55,428 bases of DNA. Origin: an uncultured Pseudomonadales bacterium. Lineage in GTDB: Bacteria; Patescibacteriota; Microgenomatia; UBA1400; MFAQ01. Made by a program: the position numbers and the translations under genes. Of this stretch, positions 8,522 to 53,089 are shown piece by piece (the first letter of the stretch is position 1; every line of letters starts with the position of its first letter). Under the pieces are notes generated by a model, which saw nothing but the letters and a program-made list of their open reading frames with translations, was not told the origin of the DNA and did not search any database. The DNA lies in the NCBI GenBank assembly GCA_964509695.1, contig CAZDXN010000003.1, forward strand, positions 1 to 55,428. Direction: 5' to 3'.

Positions 8522-8897
8522 TAATTGATGATTTCTGAATCGTCAAAGTACATTTACATTCGAGTCGGACAACTGATCTTTAGCAATAAGGATCAAAAGG
8601 GGAAAGTTCTTAGCCTTGGTAGGTTGAGAGCAAATACCGCGAAAGTTGCTAATTGACCCACGGGTCGAGGTGCGACGATCGAGACTAATTCAACCGGAAG
8701 CCAATCTGCTTCTGACTCGGGGGAACCCGATCATCAGGAAAGAGAAGCCGAAGGTTACCACAGACACAACAATCCCGCCTCATCTTTTCCTGTCCCTATC
8801 CTACCTGTCCATTTCGCGCAAGCGATTTTAGGTGAGAAGAGATTATGGCGAAGATGGTGGGATAAAGAGCATGAGAAATCGTACTTTTTATCCCACG
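8522..8897 (+). ncRNA. Candidate structured ncRNA (~375 nt), family unknown
   Basis: Follows a strong promoter; several hairpins with GNRA/CACG loops; long-range helix 8560-69 with 8711-20; final hairpin 8857-69 with 8884-96; no SD-led ORF. Confidence 0.55.
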
Positions 8898-8929
8898 GTA
8901 TATCCGGCGCGAATGTTTCTCGTTATCCT

Positions 8930-8957
8930 TGTCATTCCGGACTTGATCCGGAATCTA
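8930..8957. repeat. Half palindromic element TGTCATTCCGGACTTGATCCGGAATCTA
   Basis: Same class as 189-214, 1862-1890 and 13173-13201. Confidence 0.85.
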
Positions 8958-9138
8958 TATAAATAATTTCCCAAAAAGATTGGTTGCCCGATTCGAACAG
9001 TACCTTAAAAAGTCAATTTTCTCTTTTCTTCTTTCGGAAGAACCCGGGCCGCGTGTTATCTGCGCGCCCGGGATTCTCCGGAAAAATCGATGTTTTTTAA
9101 TGCCCCAGCTGGGGCGGCCGCTAAGGAGGCGGTTTTTG

Positions 9139-11418
9139 ATGAAAGCATACAATTTTGTTCGCGGCCATTTGACAGATGGCCTCGCATTAACGACCGATGA
9201 AAAACTCGGTCGAATTGTATTTCTCGGCGAGGTCGGCCGGGGCCGACGCTATGAGAAAGTGGCGTTGGACCGGCATAACCCGCCGGCGGTGGTAGATGGA
9301 CGCGTGCTGGATTGCCAGCCGCGTAAAGTCACCCTCCAGCCGAAAGACGGGAAGCCCGAGAAGATTTTTTACGTTCTCGAGCAGTCCCGCGGTGGTTCGG
9401 ACGCAGTTTTGGTCCGAATTTTTACCGAGGGGACGTACACAAAGAACACCCGTGGGCGTTGGCAAACGATTGCGGGGAATCCCGAGACCATCATCTCGGG
9501 GTACGGCGCCTACGGCGACGCCGGCCGAATTGGCAACTGGGATGATGGCCTCGTCCTCATGCGCCCGGGAGACGTAGTGAAAGTCACGTTATCCGGGGGC
9601 TCGAAGTTTGAGCCGTATGCGATTTGGTTCAATGATGGCGCCCCCCAATGCGCCACTTGGAAAGAGTACGAGACCCTGACCGCGGTCACTTCGGCGCAAG
9701 CCGAGGCGTCCGGGTCGGGTCTCAAAATTCTTTTCGGCCAAATGCCAACCTTCACTTGGTCTCACGGCAAAGTTGAGCCGGGGATCAAGTTGGCCAAGGG
9801 CCTGACGGGCCCGATGGTGTCGTTAGGTGAATCCGGCCGGGGGCGCACCTTGACCGAGGTGCCTCTGGTCAACTACCCCGTCGAGGGGAAGTTGATCGAG
9901 GCGGCCGTAGCCGTCCTCAAAGAGGAAACCAAACCTTCCCGTTATCCCGGGGGTGAGCCGGAGACGAAAGTCTCTTACGGCTTGACCCAAGGGGCCGCGA
10001 AGGAAGCTGGTTCTGGTTTCCTAGTCAAAGTCTCGAGCTCGTGGGTTTATACCCGTGGGTCGAGTCCGGAGATCTCTGCCTGGAAAGGTAACTCGACTTT
10101 TCTGGCGGAAGGCCGGGGGGCTGAAGGCGATGCTGGCCGGATTTATGATTGGCCGGAAATCCTCGTTGTCCTCCATGAGGGTGACGTTCTTTTTATCCGT
10201 CCGGAAGGCGGATACAAAGTTCGTTCATACACCCTCTTCGTAAAAAACGGTCAGTTGAAAACTGAGCCGTGGGTGACCTGGAAGGTTGAAGACGCGAAGC
10301 GCGACCCCGAGTTCTATGTCGCTAAGGGAACTGCGCCTTCGGCGGGGCTTGTGCCCGCCGAGTGGATTGGGAGGGTCGTTTCCGTCCAGGTCCTCGAGAA
10401 TAGTCGCGATCAAGGCGATCATCTCGAAGAAAAACAGGTCGGTGAGGTCATTTCCATTTCGCCCTTGGTGTTGAATCTGGGGTGGGACGGTCAGGACCGC
10501 TACGACGTGACGATCAATCAGGCGACCTGGGTCCGCCTCGAGAGGGACAAGAAAGTAGTCCGACTCGGAGGCGAAGCCGCCGAAAAGCGGCAGTCGCTTC
10601 GGGCGAGGTTGGAACAGTTGATGGTCGAGGCTGGACAGGCCTTGGCCAAAAGCTACACCTCTCTGGCCAGCGAGGAACTGCGGAAGGAATTGTACGACGC
10701 TTCCCGCAGTTATTACTGGACGCTCGACACCCTGCCCACCGAGGGATGGGGGAATACGATCAGTGCTTTCGTCGAAAAGGCCGAAGCGACCCTGAAGCAA
10801 TTCCGGGAAGTTGAGGCCGAACTTCAAGCCCGCGAAGCGGCCGGAAAGTCGGGTGAAATGATGCCCGATTACCGCGTCCGCCTTGGTGGGTCGAAAAATG
10901 GCCGAGCCGTGGAAACGGCTTGGGCTATTTTGCCGGATGGTTCGACTGTGACCCCGAAAGGGGATTACGGCGAAGCCATTTTCGGCGATTTGACCCCGAC
11001 GGCGCTCGTAGTGACTCATCTCGAGTCCAACTACGGCTACCGCTACTCGGAGGCCTGGATCGTCGCTCATCTGCCCGCCAAGGTGACCGAGGCCCAGAAG
11101 GCCAAGGTTGTCGAGTTGGGGCAAACCGCCCACAAGTACTTCGTGGGCGGCAAGACCGGCTGGGACCTCGCCGAAAAAGAGGTCTACTTCCAGACCGCCT
11201 ACGACCGGGACTTCCGGACGGAGGAGGAGTTAGCGGCCAATCGCGAGATGACGGCCGCCTTCCCCATTGATTTGGGGATCTGGAAAGTAATGCGTTCCTG
11301 CGAGTCCGGGAAGCGCACGGTCTGGGCAGAACGCCGGACCGAGGGCGATTCGAATCGCCCGAGTGAGGTGATGGCGATGGCCTTCAAAGCGGCCGTGGCC
11401 AAGCGCCTCGATGACTAG
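9139..11418 (+). CDS. Hypothetical protein (759 aa) with a tandem-duplicated ~200-aa domain
   Basis: AAGGAGG SD before ATG 9139 (preferred over the track's GTG 8980); GxGAxGDAGRIxxW motif twice, 204 codons apart. Confidence 0.85.
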   Translation: MKAYNFVRGHLTDGLALTTDEKLGRIVFLGEVGRGRRYEKVALDRHNPPAVVDGRVLDCQPRKVTLQPKDGKPEKIFYVLEQSRGGSDAVLVRIFTEGTYTKNTRGRWQTIAGNPETIISGYGAYGDAGRIGNWDDGLVLMRPGDVVKVTLSGGSKFEPYAIWFNDGAPQCATWKEYETLTAVTSAQAEASGSGLKILFGQMPTFTWSHGKVEPGIKLAKGLTGPMVSLGESGRGRTLTEVPLVNYPVEGKLIEAAVAVLKEETKPSRYPGGEPETKVSYGLTQGAAKEAGSGFLVKVSSSWVYTRGSSPEISAWKGNSTFLAEGRGAEGDAGRIYDWPEILVVLHEGDVLFIRPEGGYKVRSYTLFVKNGQLKTEPWVTWKVEDAKRDPEFYVAKGTAPSAGLVPAEWIGRVVSVQVLENSRDQGDHLEEKQVGEVISISPLVLNLGWDGQDRYDVTINQATWVRLERDKKVVRLGGEAAEKRQSLRARLEQLMVEAGQALAKSYTSLASEELRKELYDASRSYYWTLDTLPTEGWGNTISAFVEKAEATLKQFREVEAELQAREAAGKSGEMMPDYRVRLGGSKNGRAVETAWAILPDGSTVTPKGDYGEAIFGDLTPTALVVTHLESNYGYRYSEAWIVAHLPAKVTEAQKAKVVELGQTAHKYFVGGKTGWDLAEKEVYFQTAYDRDFRTEEELAANREMTAAFPIDLGIWKVMRSCESGKRTVWAERRTEGDSNRPSEVMAMAFKAAVAKRLDD

Positions 11419-11427
11419 TGTCTTTCT

Positions 11428-11468
11428 GGGGTGGCGGGTTTGTAACCCGCCACCCCAATTCTATTTTT
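11428..11468 (+). terminator. Intrinsic terminator-like hairpin
   Basis: GGGGTGGCGGGTT-TGT-AACCCGCCACCCC followed by AATTCTATTTTT. Confidence 0.7.
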
Positions 11469-11537
11469 CTGAAAGAAGAGGAGAGAATGTGTTCGATTGA
11501 AGTAGTTTCGTTTTGCCTGCCTGTGAAGCTTGACCCT

Positions 11538-11576
11538 GGACAGGAATCAGGTGACGCAGGCGGATAAGACGAAATT
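11538..11576 (+). repeat. 39-bp direct repeat, copy 1
   Basis: GGACAGGAATCAGGTGACGCAGGCGGATAAGACGAAATT. Confidence 0.9.
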
Positions 11577-11795
11577 AATGCCCCAGACGTAATAGTACCT
11601 TTCGATTTTATGTTCGAAGGGGATGTTGAGACGCGATAGGGTGAGTCCTGTTGCACTTTGGTAGGTATCAATAAGCCCCCAAACCAGATTGATGGATTCG
11701 ATATAAATGTTGCCCCATTTTATTTGATCGTCTTCGATACCATCGGGGATTGGGAAGACGTCTTGATCAATATCTTGAGATTCTCTTGAGGTCAT
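11547..11795 (-). CDS. Hypothetical protein (82 aa)
   Basis: Overlaps the stop of the upstream ORF (ATGA); its own stop codon is supplied by the 39-bp repeat. Confidence 0.5.
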   Translation of the reverse strand: MTSRESQDIDQDVFPIPDGIEDDQIKWGNIYIESINLVWGLIDTYQSATGLTLSRLNIPFEHKIERYYYVWGINFVLSACVT

Positions 11796-12196
11796 TTCAT
11801 CTCATCTAGGGGGAGATCTATCTCGTCAGCGACCTGCTGGAGTTGATTCCCCGAAAAGATTCGGAAGTGGGGTTGGTCGAGTTGCGATTCTCTCAGTTGT
11901 TGAATGGTTTTTTGCCGTTTTTCGCCTTTGGTTTCAAGTTCTTCAGTAAGCAACCTGTAGGTGACTTCGTCAAAGTCCTTGGTTATTTCTCGAGTTAGCT
12001 CGAGAAATTTCTCCATAAGGGGATAATCTATGACATCAATTTTGGATAAATCAAGACCAGAAACGTTACTTGGAAGTTTTGGGATCTTTTGGTCTTCGAG
12101 CTGTTCTATGACCTTTGATGGTCTAACCGCGGCGGATCGATGGACAGTGGAGATAATGTCACTGATGTCATCAATTGCGTGGTCGGGACGGCTCAT
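11792..12196 (-). CDS. Hypothetical protein (134 aa)
   Basis: TATATT -10 is 6 nt before the ATG; protein-like composition. Confidence 0.7.
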   Translation of the reverse strand: MSRPDHAIDDISDIISTVHRSAAVRPSKVIEQLEDQKIPKLPSNVSGLDLSKIDVIDYPLMEKFLELTREITKDFDEVTYRLLTEELETKGEKRQKTIQQLRESQLDQPHFRIFSGNQLQQVADEIDLPLDEMK

Positions 12197-12231
12197 GGTT
12201 TGAATATAACATCAAATAGGGCCATAATTTC

Positions 12232-12270
12232 GGACAGGAATCGGGTGACGCAGGCAGGTAAGACGAAATT
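12232..12270 (+). repeat. 39-bp direct repeat, copy 2
   Basis: GGACAGGAATCGGGTGACGCAGGCAGGTAAGACGAAATT. Confidence 0.9.
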
Positions 12271-12286
12271 GGGGTATAAAGATAGT

Positions 12287-12790
12287 ATGAGAGAAGCTCA
12301 AGAGAGGATGACGATGAGTCCAAAGGAAAGAATTGATGGTCTGGTTCCGTCTGAGAAGAGGAAGCTAACACATACAATTGTGCATGAAGCGGGGCATGCC
12401 GCAAAGGCAATTTTATTGGGACTAAGAGTTTCCGGATACGTTATTGGAGATTATGGGTGGGGAGACCAGGGTGCTTATAAAAAACCGAAAGGAGTCGTAG
12501 ATGGAAAAGTAATTTTAAACCAAGCTATAGGTGAGACGGACTGGGAAAGGAAATTGAAAATGTCTGCAGCCAGTGGTGCGGCAGCAGAATTGGTGTATTT
12601 TGGATATATTAACTCCACTGCAGGTCAACAAAAGGTTGACCGTTTGACTGGGAATTTTCGTTCCTATAGAGAGATTGATGAAATGGCCAATAAAATTGCT
12701 GATGAACTTGAAGCGAGTGAGATTTTTTATGAGTGTATCCGAAGGATGGCGAGAGGCGAGGCCCTTGATGATTTGAGTGTGAAAACCTGA
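12287..12790 (+). CDS. Stand-alone M41 (FtsH-type) metallopeptidase-like domain protein
   Basis: IVHEAGHA zinc motif and SGAAAELVYFG third-ligand helix; TATAAA is 6 nt before ATG 12287. Confidence 0.75.
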   Translation: MREAQERMTMSPKERIDGLVPSEKRKLTHTIVHEAGHAAKAILLGLRVSGYVIGDYGWGDQGAYKKPKGVVDGKVILNQAIGETDWERKLKMSAASGAAAELVYFGYINSTAGQQKVDRLTGNFRSYREIDEMANKIADELEASEIFYECIRRMARGEALDDLSVKT

Positions 12791-12794
12791 CCTT

Positions 12795-12865
12795 GGACAG
12801 GAATCGGGTGACGCGGGCGGACCTGCTGAAAGCCAAGGCATTCAGGCGGGCGGGTAAGACGAGAT
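12795..12865 (+). repeat. 39-bp direct repeat, copy 3, interrupted by a 33-bp hairpin insertion
   Basis: GGACAGGAATCGGGTGACGCGGGCGG[ACCTGCTGAAAGCCAAGGCATTCAGGCGGGCGG]GTAAGACGAGAT. Confidence 0.88.
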
Positions 12866-12913
12866 GGAGTGGGTTTTTGACAAATGGGATGGGGGTGGCT
12901 ATATTATCGGATA

Positions 12914-13381
12914 ATGAGCGAGAGAATAAGAAGATTTAAGGCGGGGGAAGCGGGGAAAAGTCTGATGTCGTTGATGGCGGGGGAAATTGGTTTTGGGGAA
13001 CCGTTTGAGGATGTCAGTTCTCAGTTGGAGGCGTTGGACGAGATACAAAGGAAGTCCTTGGTCCTACTGGTGGCCTGTGACAGAATTTATGGATTTTTTG
13101 AGAATCGGGTTGGGATGGCCAATGGGCCACGTTTGGTGAAGCTGGTTCGCGACTTGGCCGGTGATCTTCATCTGTCATTCCGGCCCCCGAGCCGGAATCT
13201 AGACGAAATCGATGTCTCCAAAGAAGAGGCGAGAGCGTATTATGATGAGCTCGTGCGAATAGGCGCGATGGAATATATGGGCGAACTTGGTAGAAAGGAT
13301 GTTTTTTGCACGATTTGGGAATGTATCAACAAGATGGTGGGCGAGGAGGAATCAACTTTGGAAGAAGCCTTGCGACCTTAG
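12914..13381 (+). CDS. Hypothetical protein (155 aa) with an in-frame palindromic half-element
   Basis: TTGACA-17-TATATT promoter 8 nt before ATG 12914; TGTCATTCCGGCCCCCGAGCCGGAATCTA at 13173-13201 reads LSFRPPSRNL. Confidence 0.75.
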   Translation: MSERIRRFKAGEAGKSLMSLMAGEIGFGEPFEDVSSQLEALDEIQRKSLVLLVACDRIYGFFENRVGMANGPRLVKLVRDLAGDLHLSFRPPSRNLDEIDVSKEEARAYYDELVRIGAMEYMGELGRKDVFCTIWECINKMVGEEESTLEEALRP

Positions 13382-13387
13382 CCAATA

Positions 13388-13416
13388 AAAAGCCCCCCGC
13401 AGTGCGGGGGGCTTTT
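13388..13416. terminator. Bidirectional terminator
   Basis: AAAAGCCCCCCGC-AGT-GCGGGGGGCTTTT between convergent genes. Confidence 0.85.
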
Positions 13417-13443
13417 CCAAACAATTGTGTGTGGTGTGCCGAG

Positions 13444-15119: not shown

Positions 15120-15123
15120 GGAC

Positions 15124-16943: not shown

Positions 16944-17124
16944 GGTTTAAATGTACATTCTAATGTACATTTTGTCAAGCAAGTTGACAGGTAGTGGTAG
17001 AATTGTGCTTATCTGATCTAGAACTTTATATATTTATATAGATAGTAGGTATCATAAGTTTGGAACAGAGCACTTTAATAATCTGTTCCATAAATAAAAT
17101 CCACACCACAAGGAGAAATAGCTG

Positions 17125-17352
17125 ATGTATTTGATTCCGTTGTATCGATTGCTTGATCGAAACTCGGCCCCACCGCACTCCAAAATTGTGATGGTGAAAC
17201 TTTTGAAATGCACTGGTACTTGTAAAATGAATCTCAGGGCGTTTTTGGCTGATCGTGAAATGCAGGCGCTTGTGACTCTTGATTTGGTCGCTTGGAAAGA
17301 TCGCCGCCTCGTTGTGACTGAAAAGGCCCGTAAATTGGTCGAAGCCGACTAG
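17125..17352 (+). CDS. Small hypothetical protein, possible winged-helix
   Basis: AAGGAGA SD; C-terminal LVTLDLV..LVVTEKARKLV resembles a wHTH wing. Confidence 0.6.
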   Translation: MYLIPLYRLLDRNSAPPHSKIVMVKLLKCTGTCKMNLRAFLADREMQALVTLDLVAWKDRRLVVTEKARKLVEAD

Positions 17353-17438: not shown

Positions 17439-18785
17439 ATGACAAACTTACATCAAAATCGTCCTTTGTCGGTAGTTAGTCCCGGCGAAACTATTGAGGA
17501 GAAACTAGCTCGTCTTCGCAACAAAGCGTACCTCCCTCCTTCCCCCGCTGTTCCTCAGGCCGCACCACAGGAAGAAGTCGAAGAACTTGGCGGTGATGAC
17601 GACGAGGGAGAACCAGATATGTCAGGCGTGATTGAAAAAGACCGGGGGGGGTTCTTGGACGGCATCTTCGATGCCATCGACGAGAACCTGCCGCGGAACG
17701 CTCCCGACTTCGTCAACAGCAAGACGATCGTGTTCGGCGTGCTGGGAATCGCCGTGTTGTTGCTGATCGTTGGCTTGGTGTTCGCCCTCTCGGGCGGCGG
17801 CCCTTCGAACTCAGCGACGGTGTTACCCTCGGCTACGGCCGTTCCGACCATGGCTCCGGCGCCGACGCCGGTCGATCCGCAAGTACTGCTGGAGCCGGCC
17901 AAGGTCGAAATTAACCTTTTGGCTCGGCCGTTCACTTTGCTGGGGTGGGTGGATCGCTTCCCGTGGTTCCTAGTCACGTTTTTGACTGTGGTACCACTGG
18001 CCCTGATCATGCTGATGGTGTCTGATAGACTATCAGCTCAGGAGTTGACGGACCTGCGAGTGATCGGTATTGGCCTGCTGTTATTGCTCGTTGCGATGAC
18101 CGCGGCAGAGGGGTGGACGGCCCTCTTGCAGAATATGAAGGCCCAGCCCCCGCCCGGCTTTTCTCCCAACACTCTGGTTGTCCTCGGATTGTTGGCAAAC
18201 ATCATTGCCTCGGGGATTGCCTCGTATCAGGGGAAAACCGACTGGACAGGACTGGCTGTCTCGGGGTTCTTCATTCCGGGCGTGTTTCTGGCTGGTTGGT
18301 ATAGCCATGACATGGCCTGGTCAGTTACAGGCTGGGTGATGATGGCCTTGGGGTTGGCAATTGAGATTTTGGAAATCAGCCGTCTTCATCGGACCTTGGC
18401 AGCCGTGATCATCGGTATGGTCGCGATGGTCATGTTTTACGTCGGTATCGGCGTAGGGCTACTCGCCGTTTACGGCGTGGACGCGTTGGCGGTGGCAAAC
18501 TCCGCGGCGTTGATGAACAATACTGCCATGAAGGTGGTTGTTCGCGCTATCCACTCGAGCAGGACGTTGATTGCGGCATTTGTGGGAGCGGCAATCGCGG
18601 TATTCGGGTCGCAACCCTTGGCAATGATTTTCGTCAAGGAGACGACTCGGGCCTACACCACCAACCGTGACTTGAACGATCGGGCATCGGAAACCGCCCG
18701 CTGGGATTCGATGGTCATCGGGGTGATGCTGGTCGCTTTGACGGTGGTCCCCTTGACTGGGTTGATTTTGTCGTTTGCCCAGTAG
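17439..18785 (+). CDS. Polytopic membrane protein (448 aa) with an acidic/proline-rich N-terminus
   Basis: AAGGAGG SD; about 9-10 hydrophobic segments; GC-rich codons. Confidence 0.85.
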   Translation: MTNLHQNRPLSVVSPGETIEEKLARLRNKAYLPPSPAVPQAAPQEEVEELGGDDDEGEPDMSGVIEKDRGGFLDGIFDAIDENLPRNAPDFVNSKTIVFGVLGIAVLLLIVGLVFALSGGGPSNSATVLPSATAVPTMAPAPTPVDPQVLLEPAKVEINLLARPFTLLGWVDRFPWFLVTFLTVVPLALIMLMVSDRLSAQELTDLRVIGIGLLLLLVAMTAAEGWTALLQNMKAQPPPGFSPNTLVVLGLLANIIASGIASYQGKTDWTGLAVSGFFIPGVFLAGWYSHDMAWSVTGWVMMALGLAIEILEISRLHRTLAAVIIGMVAMVMFYVGIGVGLLAVYGVDALAVANSAALMNNTAMKVVVRAIHSSRTLIAAFVGAAIAVFGSQPLAMIFVKETTRAYTTNRDLNDRASETARWDSMVIGVMLVALTVVPLTGLILSFAQ

Positions 18786-18802
18786 GAGCATGGAACAGAT
18801 TT

Positions 18803-21964: not shown

Positions 21965-22900
21965 TTAGAGGCTGGAGAGGTCAAGTTTTACGGATGGGGT
22001 TTGGTTGGCGGTAAGATAGGCAGTGGTGATTTTGGTCAAGCCGATTTCTTTGAGAAGTGCGGTGAGATTGCCGGTCAGTTCGTCAACCTTTTGACTGGTT
22101 TTGCCAAGGCTGACGTGGATGATGGGGAACTTCGGCTCGGTTTTGTAGGTAATCGTAGCCCCGGCGGAGAGCTGTTTGGCCCGGCCTTCTGGGTCGGCAG
22201 TGACTGTGCCGCTCTTGGGATTGGGCATCAGGCCTTTGGGGCCTAGAATCTTGGCGTAGCGAGCTAGTTTGGGCATGTCTGCCGGGGTAGCCAGAAGAAC
22301 ATCGAAGTTAAATTCATTGTTGTTTAGGGCGGTGACGGTTTTGTCGGAGAATATTTCGACGCGAACATTCTTGCCGGTAGAGAAGGGGGTTTTAACTTCA
22401 CCGCGAAGACCGGTGTCGATGACGTTTAGATGAAGGTCGATGGTTCTAGTTCCGCCGGCGAGGGAGATTAGCTTTTCGAGAGCGACTTTTGGAGCCAGAA
22501 CTTCATTACTCTTGATTTTTTTAGCGAGGATTTTGTAGCGCTTCGAGCGGCCGTAGATGTGGCTGGGGTACTTGGCGAAGTGGCTGGTGGAGATTACGGG
22601 TGCGTCATCCTCGCGAACGCGGGGATCCATACTATCTGTATAGATTCCCGATCGGGTCGGGAATGACAAAGTAGATTGCTTCGTGGGTACACTCCCTCCA
22701 GAGGCGGGCTTTGGCGCAATGACGGGGGAGTAGGTGACGTGAACTTTTTCCAGATCGGCATCGGAAAGGCCAAGGGCGAGGAGTTCGCCGTCAGTTTTGG
22801 CGGTGAGCTGTTCGGGCTTGACGCGCTTCTCACGAAGAACCTTAGCGATATTTTCCGGCAAATCTTGATATAGTTCTTTCCAATTCGTTCTAGTTGCCAT
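21965..22900 (-). CDS. rplA: 50S ribosomal protein L1 with a ~115-aa N-terminal extension
   Basis: RGEVKTPFSTGK, FDVLLATP, ILGPKGLMPNPKSGTV; directly downstream of rplK. Confidence 0.95.
   Translation of the reverse strand: MATRTNWKELYQDLPENIAKVLREKRVKPEQLTAKTDGELLALGLSDADLEKVHVTYSPVIAPKPASGGSVPTKQSTLSFPTRSGIYTDSMDPRVREDDAPVISTSHFAKYPSHIYGRSKRYKILAKKIKSNEVLAPKVALEKLISLAGGTRTIDLHLNVIDTGLRGEVKTPFSTGKNVRVEIFSDKTVTALNNNEFNFDVLLATPADMPKLARYAKILGPKGLMPNPKSGTVTADPEGRAKQLSAGATITYKTEPKFPIIHVSLGKTSQKVDELTGNLTALLKEIGLTKITTAYLTANQTPSVKLDLSSL
22604..22723. repeat. 120-bp palindromic elements in-frame inside rplA
   Basis: GTCATCCTCGCGAACGCGGGGATCCAT..TAGATTCCCGATCGGGTCGGGAATGACA plus AGATTGCTTCGTG..GCGCAATGAC. 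Confidence 0.85.
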
Positions 22901-25239: not shown

Positions 25240-25812
25240 CTAGATTTTAGAAACTTGCAGGAAGTCGAGCTCTACCGGGGTTTCGCGGCCGAAGATGCTG
25301 ACGAGAACCTCGACCTTGCCTTTGGCCTCGTCGATGGTGCGAACAGTTCCAAGCAAGTCGGTAAATGGTCCTTCGATGATCTTGACGGCTTCACCAAGAG
25401 AGAAGGCGGCTTGGAATTTCGGTGCGGCCTGCAGAGCAAAGGCGAGGATAGCGTCAACTTCTTTTTGAGGGATGGGGGTGGGGTTATTGCCGGTGCCGAC
25501 GAAACCAGTGACTCCTTGGGTGGTGCGGACGGCTAGCCAAGAATTATCGGTGACAATCATCTTCACGAGCATGTAGCCGGGGAAGATCTTCTCTTTGATG
25601 GTGCTTTTCTTGCCTTTGCTGATTTTGATCTTGTCTTGGGTGGGAATGAGAATCTCGTAGACGTAATCGGTCAGACCCATGGACTCGACCTTGGTTTGGA
25701 GGGTATGGGCGGTTCTGGTCTCATGACCGGAGTAGGTGTGAACGACGTACCACTTGGCGCTGGCTGAGTCGTTGGGGTTGACGATGAGATGATTTTGATT
25801 TTCTTCGGCCAT
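25240..25812 (-). CDS. nusG: Transcription termination/antitermination factor NusG
   Basis: WYVVHTYSGHE, FPGYMLV, GVTGFVG, KOW GEAVKIIEGPF and FGRETPVELDF. Confidence 0.98.
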   Translation of the reverse strand: MAEENQNHLIVNPNDSASAKWYVVHTYSGHETRTAHTLQTKVESMGLTDYVYEILIPTQDKIKISKGKKSTIKEKIFPGYMLVKMIVTDNSWLAVRTTQGVTGFVGTGNNPTPIPQKEVDAILAFALQAAPKFQAAFSLGEAVKIIEGPFTDLLGTVRTIDEAKGKVEVLVSIFGRETPVELDFLQVSKI

Positions 25813-29573: not shown

Positions 29574-29933
29574 CTAAGGTTCGATGAGGTCGTCGTTTAA
29601 CGACGCCATCCATTCGTTGGCCAGACGTTCGGCTTCTTCTCGGCGCAATGCCGCCTGGAGAAGTGTTGTCTGCGCCGATTCGTTGACGACAACTTCTTCG
29701 ATTGGCACATGACAGATGACTTCGAAACCCTCACCGTCGTTGCGGATTCCGGCCAAGGTCGTGCCGTCGTGGCATAGGGCGGAGTAGCCGTCGACGTCGA
29801 TGACAAACAGTGCGCGACTTTTATCGGAAGCTGGGTCGCCGAAGTTGGGGAGGAGACGAATTAGATCTCCGGGCTTCAGGTCTGCGATTTTGGTTGCACC
29901 CGGTCCGGGAGCAAAGTTGTTAAAGCAACACAT
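29574..29933 (-). CDS. Hypothetical protein (119 aa), possible SH3/KOW-like N-terminus
   Basis: IADLKPGDLIRL..ALFVIDVD; SD-like GAGAGG upstream. Confidence 0.65.
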   Translation of the reverse strand: MCCFNNFAPGPGATKIADLKPGDLIRLLPNFGDPASDKSRALFVIDVDGYSALCHDGTTLAGIRNDGEGFEVICHVPIEEVVVNESAQTTLLQAALRREEAERLANEWMASLNDDLIEP

Positions 29934-31259: not shown

Positions 31260-33346
31260 AATGATGTGGTGATTCCTAGTGCTTTAGCAGTTGATTTGAC
31301 CGCTTGCATTTTTTCCTCTAAGGTTAATTCTTTTGAATTTGGTCTGTATTTTCCGACGAAAGCATGAATTTTATGGACCCTGACCGTTCCCGCCGCCTCG
31401 TCTATTTTCCGTATGTCTTGCTTGGCTTGAATATTGATGTCTTGTTCGATCGATTTAATTTTCCTGACCGCTTCATTGCTAATTGACCTTGCGAAAGCGA
31501 CGACGTTAGGCCAGCGACGACCCCTGACTACTACGGGGTTGAGAGTGATGACTAAATTTGGGTTCTTATATCTAGCTTGATAGTCTGGCACTATCTCGTC
31601 AATTAAGGCAATCATTCGATTTAATTTCTCTGACGATACATTGTCGTCATAGTCGTCCCTATAAAATAATTTATCTAATCCGACGAACGCAACACCCTCA
31701 TCGAGATCTGCGGCATATTTGGACCAGACAATAGCCATTCTTTTTACTTGGTCGGGTAGGTTGGTTTTACCGATCTCTTCGGGGGTAAATGGAGAGGATC
31801 TATAATCGACAAGATATTCCCCAACGCGTTGATGACACTTGAGGGCCCAAGAAAGATAGCCGACCTGAGTGAGACCAAGTTCAGTCTCAGCCGGAGTTAC
31901 GCACAGAAAACTTTTGCATTCAGTGTAGGTATCGATGCTCCCCGATTGATCACCATATACTTGGAAGGAAAATCCATAATACTCCCTTGATGAACTCGAA
32001 AACATGGAGGTAGCGGACATGGTATTGCCAAGGTACTGGGCGAGAATTAGATGTTTCAGGCCTTTTTTCCCGATGCCGGGATTGAAGTGGAGCGTCATGC
32101 CCTTGTATTTGTAGAAATCGATTAGGCCTAGGTCTTGCATTAGTCTCACGAAGGCAACCATGGTTTCCGGGTGATAGAAGGGGCCGGGGGCGATTTCAGC
32201 GCAGCCGTCCCCGCCACCACCCCAGTGAATTCCTAAGGTTTCGGTCACCACGGCAAAACCTTCCGGAATGGCGGCGGTCATTGTCTCCGGATTGGATGGG
32301 TATTCTATTTCATTGCCTTGGGTAGCAGCGATACCCATGGTGATTATGGGAAGATCGGTGTTTTCATCTTGAGCGATTTTTTTGGCAAGTAATGACTGTT
32401 CTCTAACATCGGACTGAAGTAAATCGCGTTTTGAGAGGGAAATTTCCCTAAGAGCATCGTAGCCCAACCTTTTTCTGATGGCGCCAATGGTAAGGAATTT
32501 TCCCGCAGGATCCCGTTGATTATAGCGGGCCTTAGCTTCTGGCGACATTTGTTTGATCAGTAATTTTGAAAGGGAAGTGGTGTTTAATGGAAGTCCCCCG
32601 ACGGTTAGGCAAAGATTGCGAAAGAGCAGATAACGGTCACCCCAATTTTGGGAAGAGCCTCGGAATGATTCATAAACCTCAACTGCCTCTGGATGTTTTC
32701 CAAAAACGTCCTGGTGACGGAGGATGAGTTTGAGATCTTCGATTGGTAGTTCAAGGAGTGATTTGGCCGACTCTACGGTCCAGGTGGGATTATCAAGGAA
32801 GGCGCGGAAAGAATCGATAGTATTACGAGGGTCGCCGATAAAAGAACCAAATATCTTTTTAATTTTCTCAGCGATGTTGGCTGGATTTCCCCCAAAGATT
32901 GAGTAGAGTCTTTTATCTTTGACGATGACGCCAATAACGTGGACATAGCGGTTAAAGCGATTAGAATATCTCTCTGGATTTTTGCAAATTTTTACAAATT
33001 CTGAGATGGCAAGGTTAATTTGGGTAAGTTGGTCGGTCGAATTTTTTAACAGTTCCCCGAGAGCTCTAGCTGTTTCTACCGCGTCAACGTAACCATAAGC
33101 GGAGCCAAAGAACCATTCTTGTTGTCCTGGGTCGGTAATCATTTTTCCCAGACAAAACAGGTCGTGATTGCTGAGCGTTTCCAGATATGTACTTAGCGTC
33201 AGATCGTTGAACCCTTTTCGAAGGAATATTCCGGCTCTGGCTAGTCTGGTGTTCTGGGCCTCAACCCTCCTGTGTGCACTTTGTTGAAAATCACTACTAA
33301 GTACTTCTCGTGACCAATTCCTGAATCTTTCAAATGAGTCTGGCAT
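31256..33346 (-). CDS. Hypothetical protein (696 aa) with a putative COOH-NH2 ligase (amidoligase/GCS-fold) domain
   Basis: GNEIE, DGCAEIAPGP, TLHFN and YTECKSF in the order expected for the superfamily; by eye only. Confidence 0.6.
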   Translation of the reverse strand: MPDSFERFRNWSREVLSSDFQQSAHRRVEAQNTRLARAGIFLRKGFNDLTLSTYLETLSNHDLFCLGKMITDPGQQEWFFGSAYGYVDAVETARALGELLKNSTDQLTQINLAISEFVKICKNPERYSNRFNRYVHVIGVIVKDKRLYSIFGGNPANIAEKIKKIFGSFIGDPRNTIDSFRAFLDNPTWTVESAKSLLELPIEDLKLILRHQDVFGKHPEAVEVYESFRGSSQNWGDRYLLFRNLCLTVGGLPLNTTSLSKLLIKQMSPEAKARYNQRDPAGKFLTIGAIRKRLGYDALREISLSKRDLLQSDVREQSLLAKKIAQDENTDLPIITMGIAATQGNEIEYPSNPETMTAAIPEGFAVVTETLGIHWGGGGDGCAEIAPGPFYHPETMVAFVRLMQDLGLIDFYKYKGMTLHFNPGIGKKGLKHLILAQYLGNTMSATSMFSSSSREYYGFSFQVYGDQSGSIDTYTECKSFLCVTPAETELGLTQVGYLSWALKCHQRVGEYLVDYRSSPFTPEEIGKTNLPDQVKRMAIVWSKYAADLDEGVAFVGLDKLFYRDDYDDNVSSEKLNRMIALIDEIVPDYQARYKNPNLVITLNPVVVRGRRWPNVVAFARSISNEAVRKIKSIEQDINIQAKQDIRKIDEAAGTVRVHKIHAFVGKYRPNSKELTLEEKMQAVKSTAKALGITTSF

Positions 33347-33519: not shown

Positions 33520-33594
33520 TTGATTCTTCACCTCCCTCCTGTTTAAGATTACAGCCTGAGTATTGTCTCATATTATTTACTTATGTCAATAGGA

Positions 33595-48133: not shown

Positions 48134-48211
48134 AAATTAATATTAATGTATACATCACTATTTGTCAATAATCGCACCATTGACTTATAGTACAGGCGAA
48201 CTTAGAATCGG

Positions 48212-48985
48212 ATGATGGAGAAATTGTTGGAGCAAAGATGGGGGAGGGTAATGCGCTCACCCGAAGAGGTGTCAATGATTACCGATTTGGCTTGCGATCT
48301 GTGTGGAGGCGATGAGATGGAGGCGGAGAAACTGATTCATCGGGTATTATTTGAGATGCACAACCGGACTTGGGGTCTCAGCCTTCATGAGGGTGATCAG
48401 GACCAGCCGTTGGTGGAGACCAAGATGGTTTGCGAATATTTGAGGTTGGCGGTTGAGAGTCAGAGACCTAGCGATTTTCGGAAGTTGACCGAGAGGGCGG
48501 TGAATTTGGCGGCCAAGCGGCCTCACCAGATTTTGTTGTATCGATCGATGGTTCATGAGATGGGTGGGGAGAGAGAAGTAAGAGCTTTTGAGAAAGCGTT
48601 GGTTTCGGTGGGAGCGCATCTACCTCCGTTGGATGACGAAGACGTTCAAATTTATCAGAGGTTGGTCGGCAAGTCTTATTGGGAACTGGACTTGGATATG
48701 CTAAGACGGGTCTTTATATCAAATTTTTTGGCTTGGAAAGTTGGTATGCTCAAATTTGAGGAATTGGAAGAAGAGGAGATTCGACAATCGGAATTTCAAG
48801 CGGAAGTTTCGGTTTTTCTGACTGGAGTTCGGGCTGAGTTGAGACGAATAGCTAGGGTGATTGTGGCGAAAAAGGCCGTACCCGAAAGGAAGACGCCGGG
48901 ATTTTTCAGGAAGGAAATAGATGAGGATGATGATTCGACAGACGTAGGGATTGATATGGAGACGGCGCGGTCGTTTCTGGATTAG
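48212..48985 (+). CDS. Hypothetical protein (257 aa)
   Basis: Helical, acidic C-terminus; TAGAAT just upstream. Confidence 0.75.
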   Translation: MMEKLLEQRWGRVMRSPEEVSMITDLACDLCGGDEMEAEKLIHRVLFEMHNRTWGLSLHEGDQDQPLVETKMVCEYLRLAVESQRPSDFRKLTERAVNLAAKRPHQILLYRSMVHEMGGEREVRAFEKALVSVGAHLPPLDDEDVQIYQRLVGKSYWELDLDMLRRVFISNFLAWKVGMLKFEELEEEEIRQSEFQAEVSVFLTGVRAELRRIARVIVAKKAVPERKTPGFFRKEIDEDDDSTDVGIDMETARSFLD

Positions 48986-50916
48986 TTTTTGGTGAGAGTT
49001 TTGAGGGAGGCGCGGGCGGCATCGTAGTCGGGCTTCAAATTGATGGCTTTTTGGAAATATTTTTTGGCGGAATCGTTTTTTCCGGTGCTTTGGTAGAGCA
49101 GGCCGAGGTTGTAGGCGACCTTGGCGTCGGTGGGCGAGAGCTCGAGGAGGTTTGTAAGTGTCTGAATGGCTTCTTGATTATATTTAGGGTCAATAGTACC
49201 AAGATAAAGTTCGACCTTGGTTCGGCTTTTGTAATAATTCCCTTGGTATGGATTCATGGCGATGGCTTTGGTGGAGTTTGTGTCTGCCTGAATAATAAGA
49301 TCATTCATCAGTTGGACTGCTCCCGGTTTGTCAACCTGGCTTTTGATAGATGAAGCGGCCATGGCTTGGGCTTCGGCCAATTGCGCCCAGAAGAGGGGTT
49401 CGTCAGGAGAAATTCGGACGGCTTGTTCGAGATAGTCTAGGCTGGGCTTTAGGAGCTGTTGGTTGAGAGTTTGTTTGCCGCGGTTGTAGGCAAGGTCGGC
49501 CCTCCATTGGTTGACGGGGATTAATAGTAAATAAATGGTAATTAATAGTAATAGGGGGAGAGATAGCCATTGATTGATGTGGAAGTTGATAGATAGATGC
49601 TTTTCGATGGTGTCGCTATTGACTGAGGCGATGGCGGGGAAAAGAAAAAAGAAAAGGGCGACCGGGACGACCGAGAAGCCAAAGTAGTTGGTGATCATGA
49701 TGCCGAGATAACCAAAAAATAGAGGCTCGGGCCAGAGGAGCAAGAGGGAAGCGAGATTTAGAAAGAGATAGGTGGCGAGGCCGAAGAAGCCGGTGTTGGC
49801 TAGAGTATTGAGATATTCGTTGTGGGCTTTGTTGTAGAGGAATTCCCACTCGGAAAGGAGGTTGTGGATGGCGGGGCGGACTGAGAAATAAGAGTAGCCA
49901 AAGGTTTCGACGCCGGAACCAAAAAGAGGATTCCTCTTGGCTAGTTCCCGAGCTCCTTGCCAGACGACCTGACGAATAATCAGGGAGTCGGAGCCGCCGA
50001 TGCGCTGTTTCTTGTCCTGAACGACGAGCTGGTCCAGATTGGGAGGTCCGAGGGGGCTAATTTTTTGGAAGAAAGACCATTTGGAAGCGACCAAGAAAAT
50101 AGCAAGGGTGATGAGGGGAAGTGACATGAGTAACTTTTGGTAATTTGAGGTAATTGGTTGTAATTTTTTGACTAAGAAATAGACCAACATGGCGGCGAGA
50201 ACGACGGCGGTCGCGCCGAGGCCGGATTGGGATTTGGTGAACCAAATGGTGAGGAGGAAGAGAGTTGTCAGTAGGCAGTTGACAGTGATCAGTTTTTTGG
50301 TCTTGGCTTTGACGGCGAGGAAGATGGGGAGGGGGAGGAGAGCGACGAGATAGGCGGAGAGCCAGTTGGGCTGACCAAGGGTGGAAAAGACGCGGTTTTG
50401 GACGTCTTGAACCCAGAGCGACTTGTCGATACCGAAGTGCTCGGCGATTCCGTAGAGCGAGACCAGGGTGGCCGATGAAAGAATTGAAATGAGGACAAAT
50501 TTGATTTTGTAAACCTCTCCCTCGGACTCCCTCCCCTTGGTAAGGGGAGGGATGGGGTGAGGTGACATGTTGGTGACAAAAGCATAATAGAGAACGATGT
50601 AGGAGATGGTAGACATAAGCCCGCCGTGGAAGCGGGAGTAGTAGCCCCAGAGGCTGGTGTGAGTGTCGATGCTGAAAATAGTTGACAGAATCTGAGAAGC
50701 TAAGAAGAGAAGAATGGGAAGATCGAGGGGGGTGCGGCGGATGGTGATTTTCTTTTGGTTGATCCATTTGACTACCCAGGCGGCGGAGATGAGGATAGTT
50801 AGGACGTAGACGAGGAGCATTTTGTTGAACTCAAAGACCTCGGAAGTACCCGGCCAGAGGACGAGGGGGATGAAAAAAAAGAGGGCGTAGAAGAGGGACT
50901 CGATCAGCTTTGACAT
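48982..50916 (-). CDS. O-antigen ligase family polymerase with C-terminal TPRs
   Basis: RVFSTLGQPNWL, TKSQSG, PLFGSGVETF, KAHNEYL and C-terminal TPR helices; palindromic insert at 50513-62. Confidence 0.93.
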   Translation of the reverse strand: MSKLIESLFYALFFFIPLVLWPGTSEVFEFNKMLLVYVLTILISAAWVVKWINQKKITIRRTPLDLPILLFLASQILSTIFSIDTHTSLWGYYSRFHGGLMSTISYIVLYYAFVTNMSPHPIPPLTKGRESEGEVYKIKFVLISILSSATLVSLYGIAEHFGIDKSLWVQDVQNRVFSTLGQPNWLSAYLVALLPLPIFLAVKAKTKKLITVNCLLTTLFLLTIWFTKSQSGLGATAVVLAAMLVYFLVKKLQPITSNYQKLLMSLPLITLAIFLVASKWSFFQKISPLGPPNLDQLVVQDKKQRIGGSDSLIIRQVVWQGARELAKRNPLFGSGVETFGYSYFSVRPAIHNLLSEWEFLYNKAHNEYLNTLANTGFFGLATYLFLNLASLLLLWPEPLFFGYLGIMITNYFGFSVVPVALFFFLFPAIASVNSDTIEKHLSINFHINQWLSLPLLLLITIYLLLIPVNQWRADLAYNRGKQTLNQQLLKPSLDYLEQAVRISPDEPLFWAQLAEAQAMAASSIKSQVDKPGAVQLMNDLIIQADTNSTKAIAMNPYQGNYYKSRTKVELYLGTIDPKYNQEAIQTLTNLLELSPTDAKVAYNLGLLYQSTGKNDSAKKYFQKAINLKPDYDAARASLKTLTKN

Positions 50917-50938
50917 TCTTGCTTGATTATGCTATATT
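50910..50938 (+). promoter_or_regulatory. Sigma70 promoter with no downstream plus-strand ORF
   Basis: TTGACA-17-TATATT, followed by a hairpin at 50953-50994. Confidence 0.6.
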
Positions 50939-50982
50939 TTGATTATCACGATGGAGGGACACACCTAAGGCTCGTCCGAAGG

Positions 50983-51159
50983 TTAATGCCCTCCCCGTTT
51001 GGTTTTAGGGGTTGCTAATTTAATTTTTTGAGTATTCAGGAAGGTGATTTGGGAGACAAATCGGCGCAATAGGGCCGAGTATTTGTATTGATTGGGACCA
51101 AGGTTTAGGTTTTGGGAATCAATGAAGGCGTAAATGGGTTTTTGGCGGCGGGCAACCAT
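50983..51159 (-). pseudogene. Internally deleted NYN/LabA (PIN-like) nuclease remnant, 58 aa
   Basis: IYAFIDSQNLNLG N-terminus fused in-frame to a PNQYKYSALLRR.. C-terminal segment; TAAACT-7-ATG. Confidence 0.55.
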
Positions 51160-51322
51160 GAATTAAAGTTTAGCACGGAGGAGGAGAGAAAAAGAGAGAG
51201 TGAGGGCGTGTGGTTCTGACCGTATTTTAATTTGGTCAAGCACGCCCTCGGAGGAGAGTTAGTTCATTTCATTGGAGAAAATCTTTCTTTGCGCTTTTTT
51301 CGCGGCCCGCGGTGGGCTATTC

Positions 51323-51520
51323 TTAGGCCGGGAGGCCGAGGCGGATTTTGACGCCTTGGCGCACGGCTTGCCGGTTTTCGGAGCGGAGGAGTTTGGTTGC
51401 CGGGTGCTGTTTTTCGGCAGTCTCGGCGGCGACAAGTTCTTCAAAATCCCCGAGCCCATCGACTTGGAAATTACCTTTCCCGTTTGCACAGCGCCGGTCC
51501 GAGGTATTTCTTTGTGCCAT
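51323..51520 (-). CDS. Small hypothetical protein (65 aa)
   Basis: AGGAG SD; TTGACA-17-TATAAA promoter (51578-51606); downstream hairpin at 51202-49. Confidence 0.65.
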   Translation of the reverse strand: MAQRNTSDRRCANGKGNFQVDGLGDFEELVAAETAEKQHPATKLLRSENRQAVRQGVKIRLGLPA

Positions 51521-51652
51521 GATGAATTTTTCTCCTATGTTTAAAATGTGCTACCTACACGTTGTAGGGCTGTGGGTTTTATAGCATAAACGGCCGTGAA
51601 TGTCAAGTTATAGGGCATTTGGATTTTGTGGGGAAAGTGTTAGAATGGCCGT

Positions 51653-52276
51653 ATGGATGAATTATTGATGACCCCTGATGAATCGCGCCGAGGTCGAGCT
51701 GACAGTTTTGCGGCCTTTATTCCTCAGATAAATGGTTTGATTGATGCAAATAATTTAGAGCCGAGAGTGGCAAATGCTAATGTATTGGCTGGCGCGGTGA
51801 GGGTGGCTGACGCGAGATTGAAAGAAGGTGAGGATTACGCTGACTTAATGAAAAGATTCAAGAAATTGGTTGCAAATAAAGATAAAACTGAGTTGGTTGA
51901 CCTGACGATGGGGTCGTTTTTGACCGTAATTCTGACGAATGAGCGTTTGAACGGAGAATTGGTATTGATGTCTTCTGAGCTTGCGGGTTTGATTGTGAAG
52001 TATTATGGAGAGAGATTGGCAGAATTACGTAAAAATCCTAAGGATGAAAAATACCAAAGAATGGCGCATTTAATCGGGCAAACAATTGCTCGGGGTGAGG
52101 TGATGGCCAAGCCGGCAGGTGAGGCTAGTATCGATGATGTGATGGAAACAATTGGAGAGCCTGTTTATACGGACGCGTTGATAAATGGACTGAAGGAAAT
52201 ATTAACTGATGTTGATAAAGAGGCGGCAAATGAAAGCAAAAAGGGTGATCTGGTAAGAGCACAAACTGCTGAATAG
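51653..52276 (+). CDS. Hypothetical helical protein (207 aa)
   Basis: TAGAAT-6-ATG. Confidence 0.78.
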   Translation: MDELLMTPDESRRGRADSFAAFIPQINGLIDANNLEPRVANANVLAGAVRVADARLKEGEDYADLMKRFKKLVANKDKTELVDLTMGSFLTVILTNERLNGELVLMSSELAGLIVKYYGERLAELRKNPKDEKYQRMAHLIGQTIARGEVMAKPAGEASIDDVMETIGEPVYTDALINGLKEILTDVDKEAANESKKGDLVRAQTAE

Positions 52277-52307
52277 GAAAGTATTTTTTTCAACCGAGAG
52301 TGAGATT

Positions 52308-52335
52308 AAGAGGGCGGTCCGTCAACCGCCCTCTT
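52308..52335. terminator. Hairpin between convergent genes
   Basis: AAGAGGGCGGT-N6-ACCGCCCTCTT. Confidence 0.75.
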
Positions 52336-52339
52336 TGGA

Positions 52340-52897
52340 TTAGGGAACCGACGCCTTTTGGAGCGTCGGGATGTTTCCGGGGCAACCGACCCCTGTCGAC
52401 CAGGTTAGGCCCTGCTGGTCGAGTCTCTTTTGATTCGGGCCTTTGAGGAAATTCTCGAAGGTCGTGTCATAAGAGCTCGTCCAGGGAGCCTGGGCTCCCG
52501 GGGTGAAAACCGCCAGGAAACCACCACTGGCACGGACCCCATCGGCGACCCAGAGGATCCAGCGGATTACTCTTCCGCTTGAGTCCACAACGGCACCGCA
52601 CTGGACCCTATTCGGATCCGGGGCCCCGTTGACGGCCAAGGTCACCCAGCTCGCGAGAATGGCGGAGATGTTTGATCTGGCTAGGCTGGTGGCCCGGTTG
52701 GGGTTGTGGTTGGCATCAGTATGCCGACCGTCGGCTACTGCGGCGAACGTATCGCCGATTTCTTCCTTAGCCGTGACGGCGGCTGGAGGAAGACTGATTG
52801 CGGAAGGGGGGACGTGGGGGAGAAGAACGGGGAGGGCGGCCGCGATTAGGAGGGCGGCCAGAACGGGGATGGAAACGAATTTCATCGTGGCGGTCAT
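52340..52897 (-). CDS. Secreted/anchored hypothetical protein (185 aa)
   Basis: AAGGAGG SD; N-terminal signal/TM; two Cys; GC-rich. Confidence 0.8.
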   Translation of the reverse strand: MTATMKFVSIPVLAALLIAAALPVLLPHVPPSAISLPPAAVTAKEEIGDTFAAVADGRHTDANHNPNRATSLARSNISAILASWVTLAVNGAPDPNRVQCGAVVDSSGRVIRWILWVADGVRASGGFLAVFTPGAQAPWTSSYDTTFENFLKGPNQKRLDQQGLTWSTGVGCPGNIPTLQKASVP

Positions 52898-53089
52898 GGG
52901 CTGCCTCCTTTGGCGGCCTTACCTAAATCCCCGTGGGCGGAATTGCCTACGGGGTTGAAAGTTGAAGGCTCGAAAGCTCAAGCGCTCAGTTCAACCTCGT
53001 AAGTTTTTTGTTACTCGACTCTTGGGTTGTTAAGGTACGGGAGCCAGCTACAAAATTAGCACAAATGGCCGTGAATGTCAAGTTATAGG

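Follow-up and report, generated by a model that had tools for sequence, protein, structure and literature searches.

Does boxA, the antitermination element of rRNA operons, also stand at the head of accessory mRNAs? Control by Nus factors through boxA was long regarded as a peculiarity of rRNA and lambdoid phages, to which a few mRNAs have been added recently. The question is raised by contig CAZDXN010000003.1 of GenBank assembly GCA_964509695.1, from an uncultured Pseudomonadales bacterium that GTDB places in the Patescibacteriota (MFAQ01); the whole 55,428-nucleotide (nt) stretch that was analysed is called the window below. The original prediction picked out seven strings resembling the boxA of Escherichia coli, held that they lie directly downstream of the promoters of accessory units led by a Shine-Dalgarno (SD) sequence, and suggested an undescribed NusB-S10 regulon. 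All seven strings are present in the DNA at the positions and on the strands listed in Table 1, where they are numbered in order along the window. We think it somewhat probable that they form a mixed set, in which sites 2 and 3 are real boxA-type elements and the other five are not. Judged by sequence comparison, sites 2 and 3 probably belong to a small, genus-restricted set of boxA-type elements, and a unit elsewhere in the genome (C55:105-125) shares their layout.

The window is contig C3 of the 0.96-Mb assembly, here called G000 (55 contigs, 46.6% GC, 87% complete). A crude codon-usage gene call, which favoured SD-linked starts, gave 983 genes (87% coding) and 626 upstream regions. Measured against the E. 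coli consensus, the motif is no more frequent than in control DNA. The window holds 36 matches to TGCTCTTTAACA at three or fewer mismatches, against 43.5 +/- 7.0 in dinucleotide shuffles, and the 626 upstream regions hold 23 on the sense strand and 33 on the antisense strand. A regulon of seven sites is therefore unsupported. The same lack of enrichment is expected if all seven sites are chance or compositional matches in A/T-rich DNA, an explanation that we consider rather unlikely and that is weighed below as the evidence is given.

A boxA model was then derived from the rRNA leaders of relatives only (30 leaders; 16S and 23S, up to 17 relatives each). The consensus of the relatives' rrn boxA is about TGCTCYTTRAMAAGTGAAKAG, and the extended element reads approximately TGCTC[TC]TT[GA]A[AC]AAGTGAA[GT]AG, with G1, C4, T6, T7, A9, A11, A12, A16 and A17 invariant. 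The core of the lineage is G-Y-W-C-Y-T-T-R-A-M-A-A, in which all of these up to A12 are invariant. A 21-nt position weight matrix (PWM; 22.5 bits) and a 12-nt core PWM were trained on this material. The rRNA genes of G000 itself are unlinked, 16S lying at C8:29911-31417 and 23S on C26; the boxA of the 16S leader is TGCACTTTGACAAGTGAAGAT, at -112, and that of the 23S leader is TGCTCCTTGAAAAGTGAATAG. A spacer-type boxA-like element, GGGACTCTTTAAACAAACC, follows the 16S trailer at C8:31516-31534 and is kept in G005; the gene after it is an open reading frame (ORF) and not 23S, which is on the other contig with its own boxA.

With the 21-nt PWM the genome's own rrn boxA elements scored 30.3 and 29.2 bits, followed by C55:105-125 (20.2 bits), a coding-antisense match, and site 2 (15.1 bits). 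The remaining sites scored -10.5 (site 1), -0.6 (site 3), -1.0 (site 4), -9.2 (site 5), -2.2 (site 6) and 13.2 bits (site 7). Comparison with the lineage boxA core divided the seven strings: sites 2, 3 and 7 fit it, site 4 is a near miss with a GAAC head, and sites 1, 5 and 6 fail. Ranked by the core PWM among the 12-mers of all upstream regions, sites 3, 7, 2 and 4 are second, fourth, fifth and seventh, and sites 1, 5 and 6 are 14th, 585th and 111th. An Infernal sequence-only model of the same alignment, which is more conservative than the PWM, gave 19.6 and 18.9 bits for the genome's own rrn boxA elements. Its best match in the window was site 2 (10.4 bits, E=0.07), and it also returned site 4 (E=1.3), site 3 (E=1.5) and site 7 (E=3.9); sites 1, 5 and 6 were not listed. 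E-values of 0.07 to 3.9 are compatible with chance matches.

Genome-wide counts point both ways on this explanation. Across G000 the 21-nt PWM has 8 matches of at least 13 bits where 7.1 are expected, so there is no excess, as chance would have it. The four intergenic matches at this threshold are all upstream of genes on the sense strand, against an expectation of 0.32 there, and none is antisense. The core PWM at 12 bits or more finds 10 sense matches and 1 antisense match in the leaders, and 8 against 1 when the final 25 nt before start codons are removed; this bias outside SD-proximal sequence argues against chance. The A/T-rich tail YTTRAHAA shows no strand bias by itself (45 against 38), and with the GYWC head it is found 5 times against 1, with 0.42 expected. 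The core matches of G000 away from SD sequences are sites 2, 3 and 7, C20:7386, C6:25425, C55:105 and two weaker ones. A null of column-permuted PWMs proved too lenient, since both strands of G006, a complete 905-kb genome of another genus of the same family that was run through the same pipeline, exceed its expectation. That excess, too, is in keeping with chance, and we therefore rely on comparisons of sense with antisense and on tests of context. Extended-pattern matches in G062, G065 and G174 were set aside, having no clear leader context and being compatible with chance (control count 2).

The context that bears most on the question is that of the 16S operon of G000, where the leader arm of the leader-trailer helix starts where boxA ends. 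Here boxA ends at C8:29819 and 29821-29855 pairs with 31541-31577, with a cofold gain of -23.4 kcal/mol compared with -4.4 for shuffled trailers. A boxA-type element directly 5′ of a leader arm, with the trailer arm past the last stop codon, is also found at site 2, site 3 and C55. The gains of site 2 (-24.7 kcal/mol, against -7.1 +/- 2.3 with shuffled trailers) and of C55 (-23.1) match that of 16S. At site 2 the trailer arm begins 46 nt past the stop codon of a 759-aa orphan gene (9139-11418), and all four non-Watson-Crick positions of the arm helix are G.U on the plus strand. An outer helix joins 8993-8999 to 11490-11496, and the element is predicted to form an unpaired loop between this helix and the inner one. 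From these features and its scores, site 2 is probably a genuine boxA-type element. The C55 unit is built in the same way, its 3′ arm lying 3 nt past the last stop codon and its core being predicted as an unpaired internal loop of the leader-trailer structure. In L153, a near-identical assembly (GCA_016183355.1, JACPEU010000042.1), the C55 unit comprises a TPM-domain protein and a lipoprotein, with the boxA-like leader and the helix, and lies directly upstream of rpsB-tsf-frr; a homolog search with the TPM-domain protein returned only itself.

Site 3 is probably a boxA-type element as well, by its core match and its position next to an arm. Its core lies in the loop of a predicted local hairpin, as had been proposed for it, and adjoins the leader arm. 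The long-range helix is weak relative to the local hairpins, with a gain of -1.2 kcal/mol. C20:7386-7406 has a similar layout. Its arm is 34 nt downstream, and its 18-bp helix faces competition from a local hairpin. For site 7 and C6, no significant long-range leader-trailer helix was found.

If the matches are due to chance, adjacency to an arm is a coincidence. A screen of 467-469 operon-like units of G000, about 400 of them with a defined best helix, found 9-11 strong leader-trailer helices (score at least 32), against 1-5 in mismatched pairs. A boxA core of at least 12 bits lies 30 nt or less 5′ of the arm in 3/26-37 strong-helix units and in 0/371-383 others (Fisher p = 2.5e-4 to 6e-4). 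An association at p of about 5e-4 is hard to reconcile with coincidence.

Orthologs within the genus are available for five elements that are not next to an SD: site 2, site 3, C55, C20 and C6. Site 2 differs between GCTCTTTCACAAGTCAA in G002/L132 and GTACCTTAAAAAGTCAA at positions 2, 3, 5, 8 and 10, and the element is conserved in L134 as well. The site 3 element is identical in G003:C39 and reads GTACATTAACAA in the Logan contig L140, with changes at positions 2, 5 and 10. C55 has a single change, at position 8, in G001, and C20 a single change in G003. C6:25425, which may be a further member of the set, has GCTCTTTAAAAC where G002 has GCACCTTGACAC, with differences at positions 3, 5, 8 and 10. 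All of these changes fall at positions that also vary among rrn boxA elements. The helices are kept too: in G001 the C55 arm has changed with a compensatory pair and lies 1 nt past the last stop codon of an operon whose composition differs, and both G003:C39 and L140 retain the site 3 arm pair, with the trailer arm closely following the final stop codon. A chance origin would require such conservation to be that of leaders in general, and the leader flanks of site 3 and C20 are indeed about 90% conserved in G003. In L140 the flanking leader has diverged, and the element with its arm forms a conserved island within it, which speaks against this.

The surroundings of C6:25425 were also noted. 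The run rpsL-rpsG ... fusA-tuf-rpsJ-rplC (C6:23671-33187, +) is broken between rpsG and fusA by 2.5 kb holding small membrane-protein and toxin-antitoxin-like genes, and one of the inserted units begins with an extended -10 promoter and the boxA-like element, at about 25425.

A search of metagenome contigs with a DNA pattern of the site 2 arm led to L132, a longer version of a G002 contig, and to L134/L135. In both, the structured RNA that in the window contains site 1 is followed by a conserved head, GATTGGTTGCCCGATTCGAA, then by a boxA-like element and then by cassettes. L132 has two cassettes, each with its own boxA-like element adjoining the same arm: GCTCTTTCACAAGTCAA at 7247-7263, and GCACTTTGAAAATTTAA, a paralogous variant of the site 2 element, at 7763-7780. 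The first cassette of L134 has a different arm pair (25 nt, 92% complementary), which the boxA-like element again adjoins. The 16S-type layout is thus found in both L132 cassettes and in the first of L134, and 3/4 of the further cassette heads in the metagenome arrays have a boxA-like element adjoining the arm. Recurrence of boxA-like variants before the same arm in L132, and before a different arm in L134, is a further point against chance. Tandem ORF cassettes, each with complementary arms of 19-26 nt, occupy L132:7240-8640, L134:4100-5700 (-) and window 8990-11500. The cargo ORFs differ between G000, L132 and L134 while the RNA, the boxA-bearing head and the arms are constant, which indicates that the genes are exchangeable.

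The same arrays could be read at the level of DNA. The inverted repeats would then be the ends of mobile gene cassettes, that is, recombination or transposition sites, and the boxA-like head would bind no Nus factor. The same arms around different cargo in G000, L132 and L134/135, the tandem arrangement, the orphan nature of the cargo genes, the REP-like palindromes and other repeats nearby and the restriction to one genus would all suit such cassettes. We nevertheless hold this to be improbable. The non-Watson-Crick positions of the cassette arms are mostly G.U on the transcribed strand (4/4 in G000, 2/2 in the second L132 cassette); the 5′ arms are placed precisely, with the boxA-like element on one side and the structured SD leader on the other, and the 3′ arms lie just past stop codons; and no recombinase gene was seen beside the units, for which no systematic search was made.

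We put forward tentatively, as a possibility that is itself doubtful, that the genus expresses some of its accessory genes from arrays built like rRNA operons, with a promoter, an RNA of about 375 nt, boxA and stem-enclosed ORF cassettes. The NusB-S10 machinery and RNase III would be recruited to transcribe, fold and cut the precursors into individual mRNAs.

A structured translation-start module recurs before different orphan genes, at window 9085-9140 and 52898-52945 (-) and at L132:7335-7375 and 7845-7885. It consists of a GCCCC-N-GGGGC hairpin, then GGCCGC-N3-GGAGGC(G/A)G, then ATG, and its SD appears to lie within the loop of a short stem. Protein-seeded searches of metagenome and genome contigs found no loci homologous to the 759-aa and 448-aa genes.

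Several results weigh against a boxA-type set around sites 2 and 3. By sequence alone only site 2 comes near significance (E=0.07), with site 3 at E=1.5 and lacking the AAGTGAA extension of rrn boxA. The set is small, numbering 3-5 units in G000, and outside one genus the extended pattern hardly occurs. Neither test was replicated in G006, where the core scan without the last 25 nt gave 2 sense and 4 antisense matches and the unit screen showed no association between boxA core and helix arm; chance would explain this. The long-range helices of site 3 and C20 have no predicted advantage over local hairpins. In the site 2 unit the 3′ arm comes after a terminator-like hairpin, and the second L134 cassette, which directly follows the first, has arms and no boxA-like element. 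No member of the SuhB/IMPase family was found in the assembly, which is 87% complete. Some thresholds were picked after the matches were known, and matches selected by the PWM fit its high-information positions by construction, so that their agreement at variable positions is inflated.

The other five sites have different explanations. In site 1, TGATCT forms the 5′ side of a conserved hairpin, which belongs to a structured non-coding RNA. In an RNAalifold alignment with G002:C92, columns 104-109 pair with 120-125, including a change from U.G to U-A, and the RNA as a whole shows 9 compensatory pairs in this alignment and is kept in L132 and L134. Site 1 was rejected as boxA on its 21-nt score and on its core, which has G at the invariant A9. 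An Rfam search of 8450-9150 found nothing relevant. RNase P was ruled out as the identity of this RNA, the RNase P RNA being located at C16:11593-11935.

Sites 4, 5 and 6 owe their likeness to boxA to their position, since all three adjoin an SD with a T-then-A-rich lead-in. The 10 nt before the SD are T-rich and then A-rich in both G000 and G006, and in both genomes 12-mers reaching 10 bits are 30-40 times commoner next to the SD than elsewhere in leaders. The sense-strand matches of G006 are mostly GnWCTTTAAnAA directly adjoining GGAGG, before many genes. On such composition site 4 is best read as part of a translation-initiation region, and sites 5 and 6 are not boxA-like by either PWM; no orthologs of sites 4-6 were found in the genus. 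A/U-rich translational enhancers 5′ of the SD are bound by ribosomal protein S1. They would cover the SD-adjacent sites only, and not sites 2 and 3, which lie 43-127 nt before the start codon. The pre-SD stretch of sites 4-6 also resembles the 'epsilon' of the phage T7 gene 10 leader, TTAACTTTA before AAGGAG; at these sites, as at many genes of G006, (G)nACTTTAAnAA runs straight into GGAGG. The lesson is that 9-10/12 identity to E. coli boxA is uninformative, and that the T/A-rich stretch before an SD mimics boxA.

Site 7 was rejected because the element is gone from the orthologous leaders of the Logan contigs L138 and L139, whose proteins are 82-84% identical and in which promoter and SD are kept; its match to the core is probably due to chance. 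Three promoters share CCTATAACTTGACA-N17-TGCTAWWW (window 53057-53089 (-) and 51582-51614 (-), and C15:8289 (+)). Two of them are nearly identical over the whole 35-nt stretch, and the promoter is kept in L138 and L139; the shared stretch may be an operator or promoter module.

Placement directly downstream of a promoter is borne out by eye for sites 4-7. It does not hold for site 2, where no consensus promoter is nearer than TTGACA-17-TATATT at 8487, and site 3 has an extended -10 only (TGgTAGAAT). That all seven are functional NusB-S10 sites, in a systematic regulon on SD-led accessory genes, is very improbable. Each of them does precede an SD-led orphan gene, on the sense strand, and nusB is present; set against this, the lineage model rejects sites 1, 5 and 6, a conserved RNA has site 1 in one of its stems, sites 4-6 reflect generic pre-SD composition and site 7 is not kept. 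Five of the seven sites fall away, and sites 2 and 3 behave like boxA.

Table 1. Features discussed in the text. Positions refer to the window unless another contig is named.
Feature	Position	Strand	Remarks
Site 1, TGATCTTTAGCA	8574-8585	+	5′ side (TGATCT) of a conserved hairpin in the structured RNA; 21-nt PWM -10.5 bits, core 10.3 bits
Structured non-coding RNA, ~375 nt	about 8520-8897	+	behind TTGACA-17-TATATT promoter (8487)
Site 2, AGTACCTTAAAAAGTCAATTT	8999-9019	+	21-nt PWM 15.1 bits, genome rank 5; Infernal E=0.07
Site 2 leader arm	9019-9042	+	24 nt; pairs with 11464-11487
Terminator-like hairpin	11427-11457	+	between stop codon and 3′ arm of site 2 unit
Site 2 trailer	11464-11496	+	3′ arm 11464-11487 and outer-helix strand 11490-11496
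Site 3 core, GCACTTTAATAA	17070-17081	+	core 15.7 bits, rank 2 among all upstream regions; Infernal E=1.5
Site 3 leader arm, AATCTGTTCCAT	17080-17091	+	pairs with 18790-18801; operon genes 17125-17352 and 17439-18785
Site 3 trailer arm, ATGGAACAGATT	18790-18801	+	5 nt past stop codon at 18785
nusG	25240-25812	-	Pfam NusG plus KOW
Site 4, TGAACTTTAAAA	29481-29492	-	adjoins AGGAGG SD; core 13.3 bits, Infernal E=1.3
Site 5, TAATCTTAAACA	33540-33551	-	adjoins GGAGGGAGG; core -1.2 bits, 21-nt PWM -9.2 bits
Site 6, GCACATTTTAAACA	51538-51551	-	adjoins TAGGAGA; core 4.0 bits, 21-nt PWM -2.2 bits
Site 7, CGTACCTTAACAACCCAAGAG	53019-53039	-	13 nt past -10 of consensus promoter; core 14.4 bits, 21-nt PWM 13.2 bits
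nusB	C2:30303-30683	-	present in G000

The machinery that such elements would need is largely encoded in G000. A nusB gene, on whose presence the original prediction depended, was found, and nusG, S10 (rpsJ) and rho are also encoded. At C2:29633-30683 (-) nusB shares 14 nt with rnc, the gene for RNase III (C2:29633-30316), and the two have the appearance of a single operon. We suggest that NusB-S10 would bind the boxA-type element as it leaves the polymerase and, with NusG and NusA, would remain on RNA polymerase. The polymerase would thereby become resistant to Rho across the long untranslated leader, and perhaps pass the hairpin at 11427-11457; because this hairpin precedes the 3′ arm, formation of the site 2 helix requires read-through. 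The 5′ arm would be kept near the exit channel until the 3′ arm has been transcribed, and the stem could then close around the cassette, leading to a cut by RNase III or to protection of the mRNA ends. In rRNA operons the antitermination complex assembles on boxBAC, and 30S biogenesis requires the leader-trailer helix (PMC10250234); the complex bridges the 5′ and 3′ ends and boosts processing by RNase III (bioRxiv 10.64898/2026.03.17.712431; PMC10250234).

Compared with the rrn system, with its complex of NusB-S10, NusA, NusG, SuhB and S4, the units described here have a motif of the same family, in the same position 5′ of an arm, and a helix of comparable stability. They differ in that the enclosed cargo is a protein-coding, SD-led ORF, that no boxB or boxC is recognised, that the 3′ extension is AAGTCAA or absent where rrn has AAGTGAA, and that they score 10-20 bits and the rrn elements about 30; SuhB, part of the rrn complex, belongs to a family not found in the G000 assembly. 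The nut sites of lambda combine boxA with a boxB hairpin and act with the N protein in processive antitermination of phage operons. Like them, the C20 unit has a hairpin after its boxA-like element, and boxA in lambda lies shortly past the promoter. Unlike them, the units here have no identified N-like protein or boxB consensus, and their hairpins are alternative partners of the long-range arm.

That boxA on accessory mRNAs would be undescribed is overstated, since mRNA boxA is already known: the suhB leader of E. coli and Salmonella carries a functional one, and boxA is also found at one further gene in Citrobacter koseri (Baniulyte 2017, Nat Commun 8:2027, PMC5725501), and hundreds of predicted sites matching GYTCTTTAANA have been published for many species, often beside translation genes (PMC5725501). 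The suhB element is a boxA in an mRNA leader that is bound by NusB/E and regulates a protein-coding gene (PMC5725501), as may be the case here. The translation-gene neighbours of that study have a parallel in the C6 and C55 units, which stand beside fusA-tuf-rpsJ and rpsB-tsf-frr. At suhB, however, the complex represses translation and promotes Rho termination, the site is within about 50 nt of the start codon and there is no leader-trailer helix; the genes here are orphans and not Nus factor genes. Searches of full-text literature gave no account of protein-coding cassettes on which boxA is combined with helices that enclose the operon, and the pairing of boxA with leader-trailer helices on mRNAs appears to be new.

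Some further features of the window and genome may be recorded. The core genes of the window include secE, nusG, rplA, rplJ, rplL and two mreB, with PIN, HEPN and orphan genes interspersed; HEPN and PIN genes interrupt the secE-nusG-rplA-rplJ-rplL run itself. An SD-like sequence precedes only about a third of the called genes of G000, and a -10-like TAnnnT stands out in the mean composition upstream of start codons, at -12 to -7, which suggests that many mRNAs are leaderless. An Rfam search of the window returned tRNAs and nothing else relevant. ARAGORN called a 96-nt tRNA-Leu(aag) at 22369-22464 (+), inside and antisense to a 311-aa L1-domain ORF; the call is probably false, since Rfam gives no such tRNA. 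G000 contains 11 copies of a palindromic, REP-like repeat, tGTCATTCCCGAnnnGATCGGGAATCtat (window 8933-8960 (+) and 22665 (-), and 9 further), and most genera of the family have many copies of it.

The analysis yields a concrete set of candidate RNAs for NusB-S10 binding and RNase III cleavage. If the supported subset is real, boxA is coupled in this genus to operon-enclosing helices on protein-coding cassettes, in a reduced-genome bacterium of the Candidate Phyla Radiation, where regulation is almost unknown. In that case the antitermination complex, with its ability to loop RNA and act as a chaperone, would be reusable for mRNA maturation. Were the proposed arrays to operate as outlined, rRNA-style co-transcriptional processing would extend to exchangeable protein-coding cassettes.

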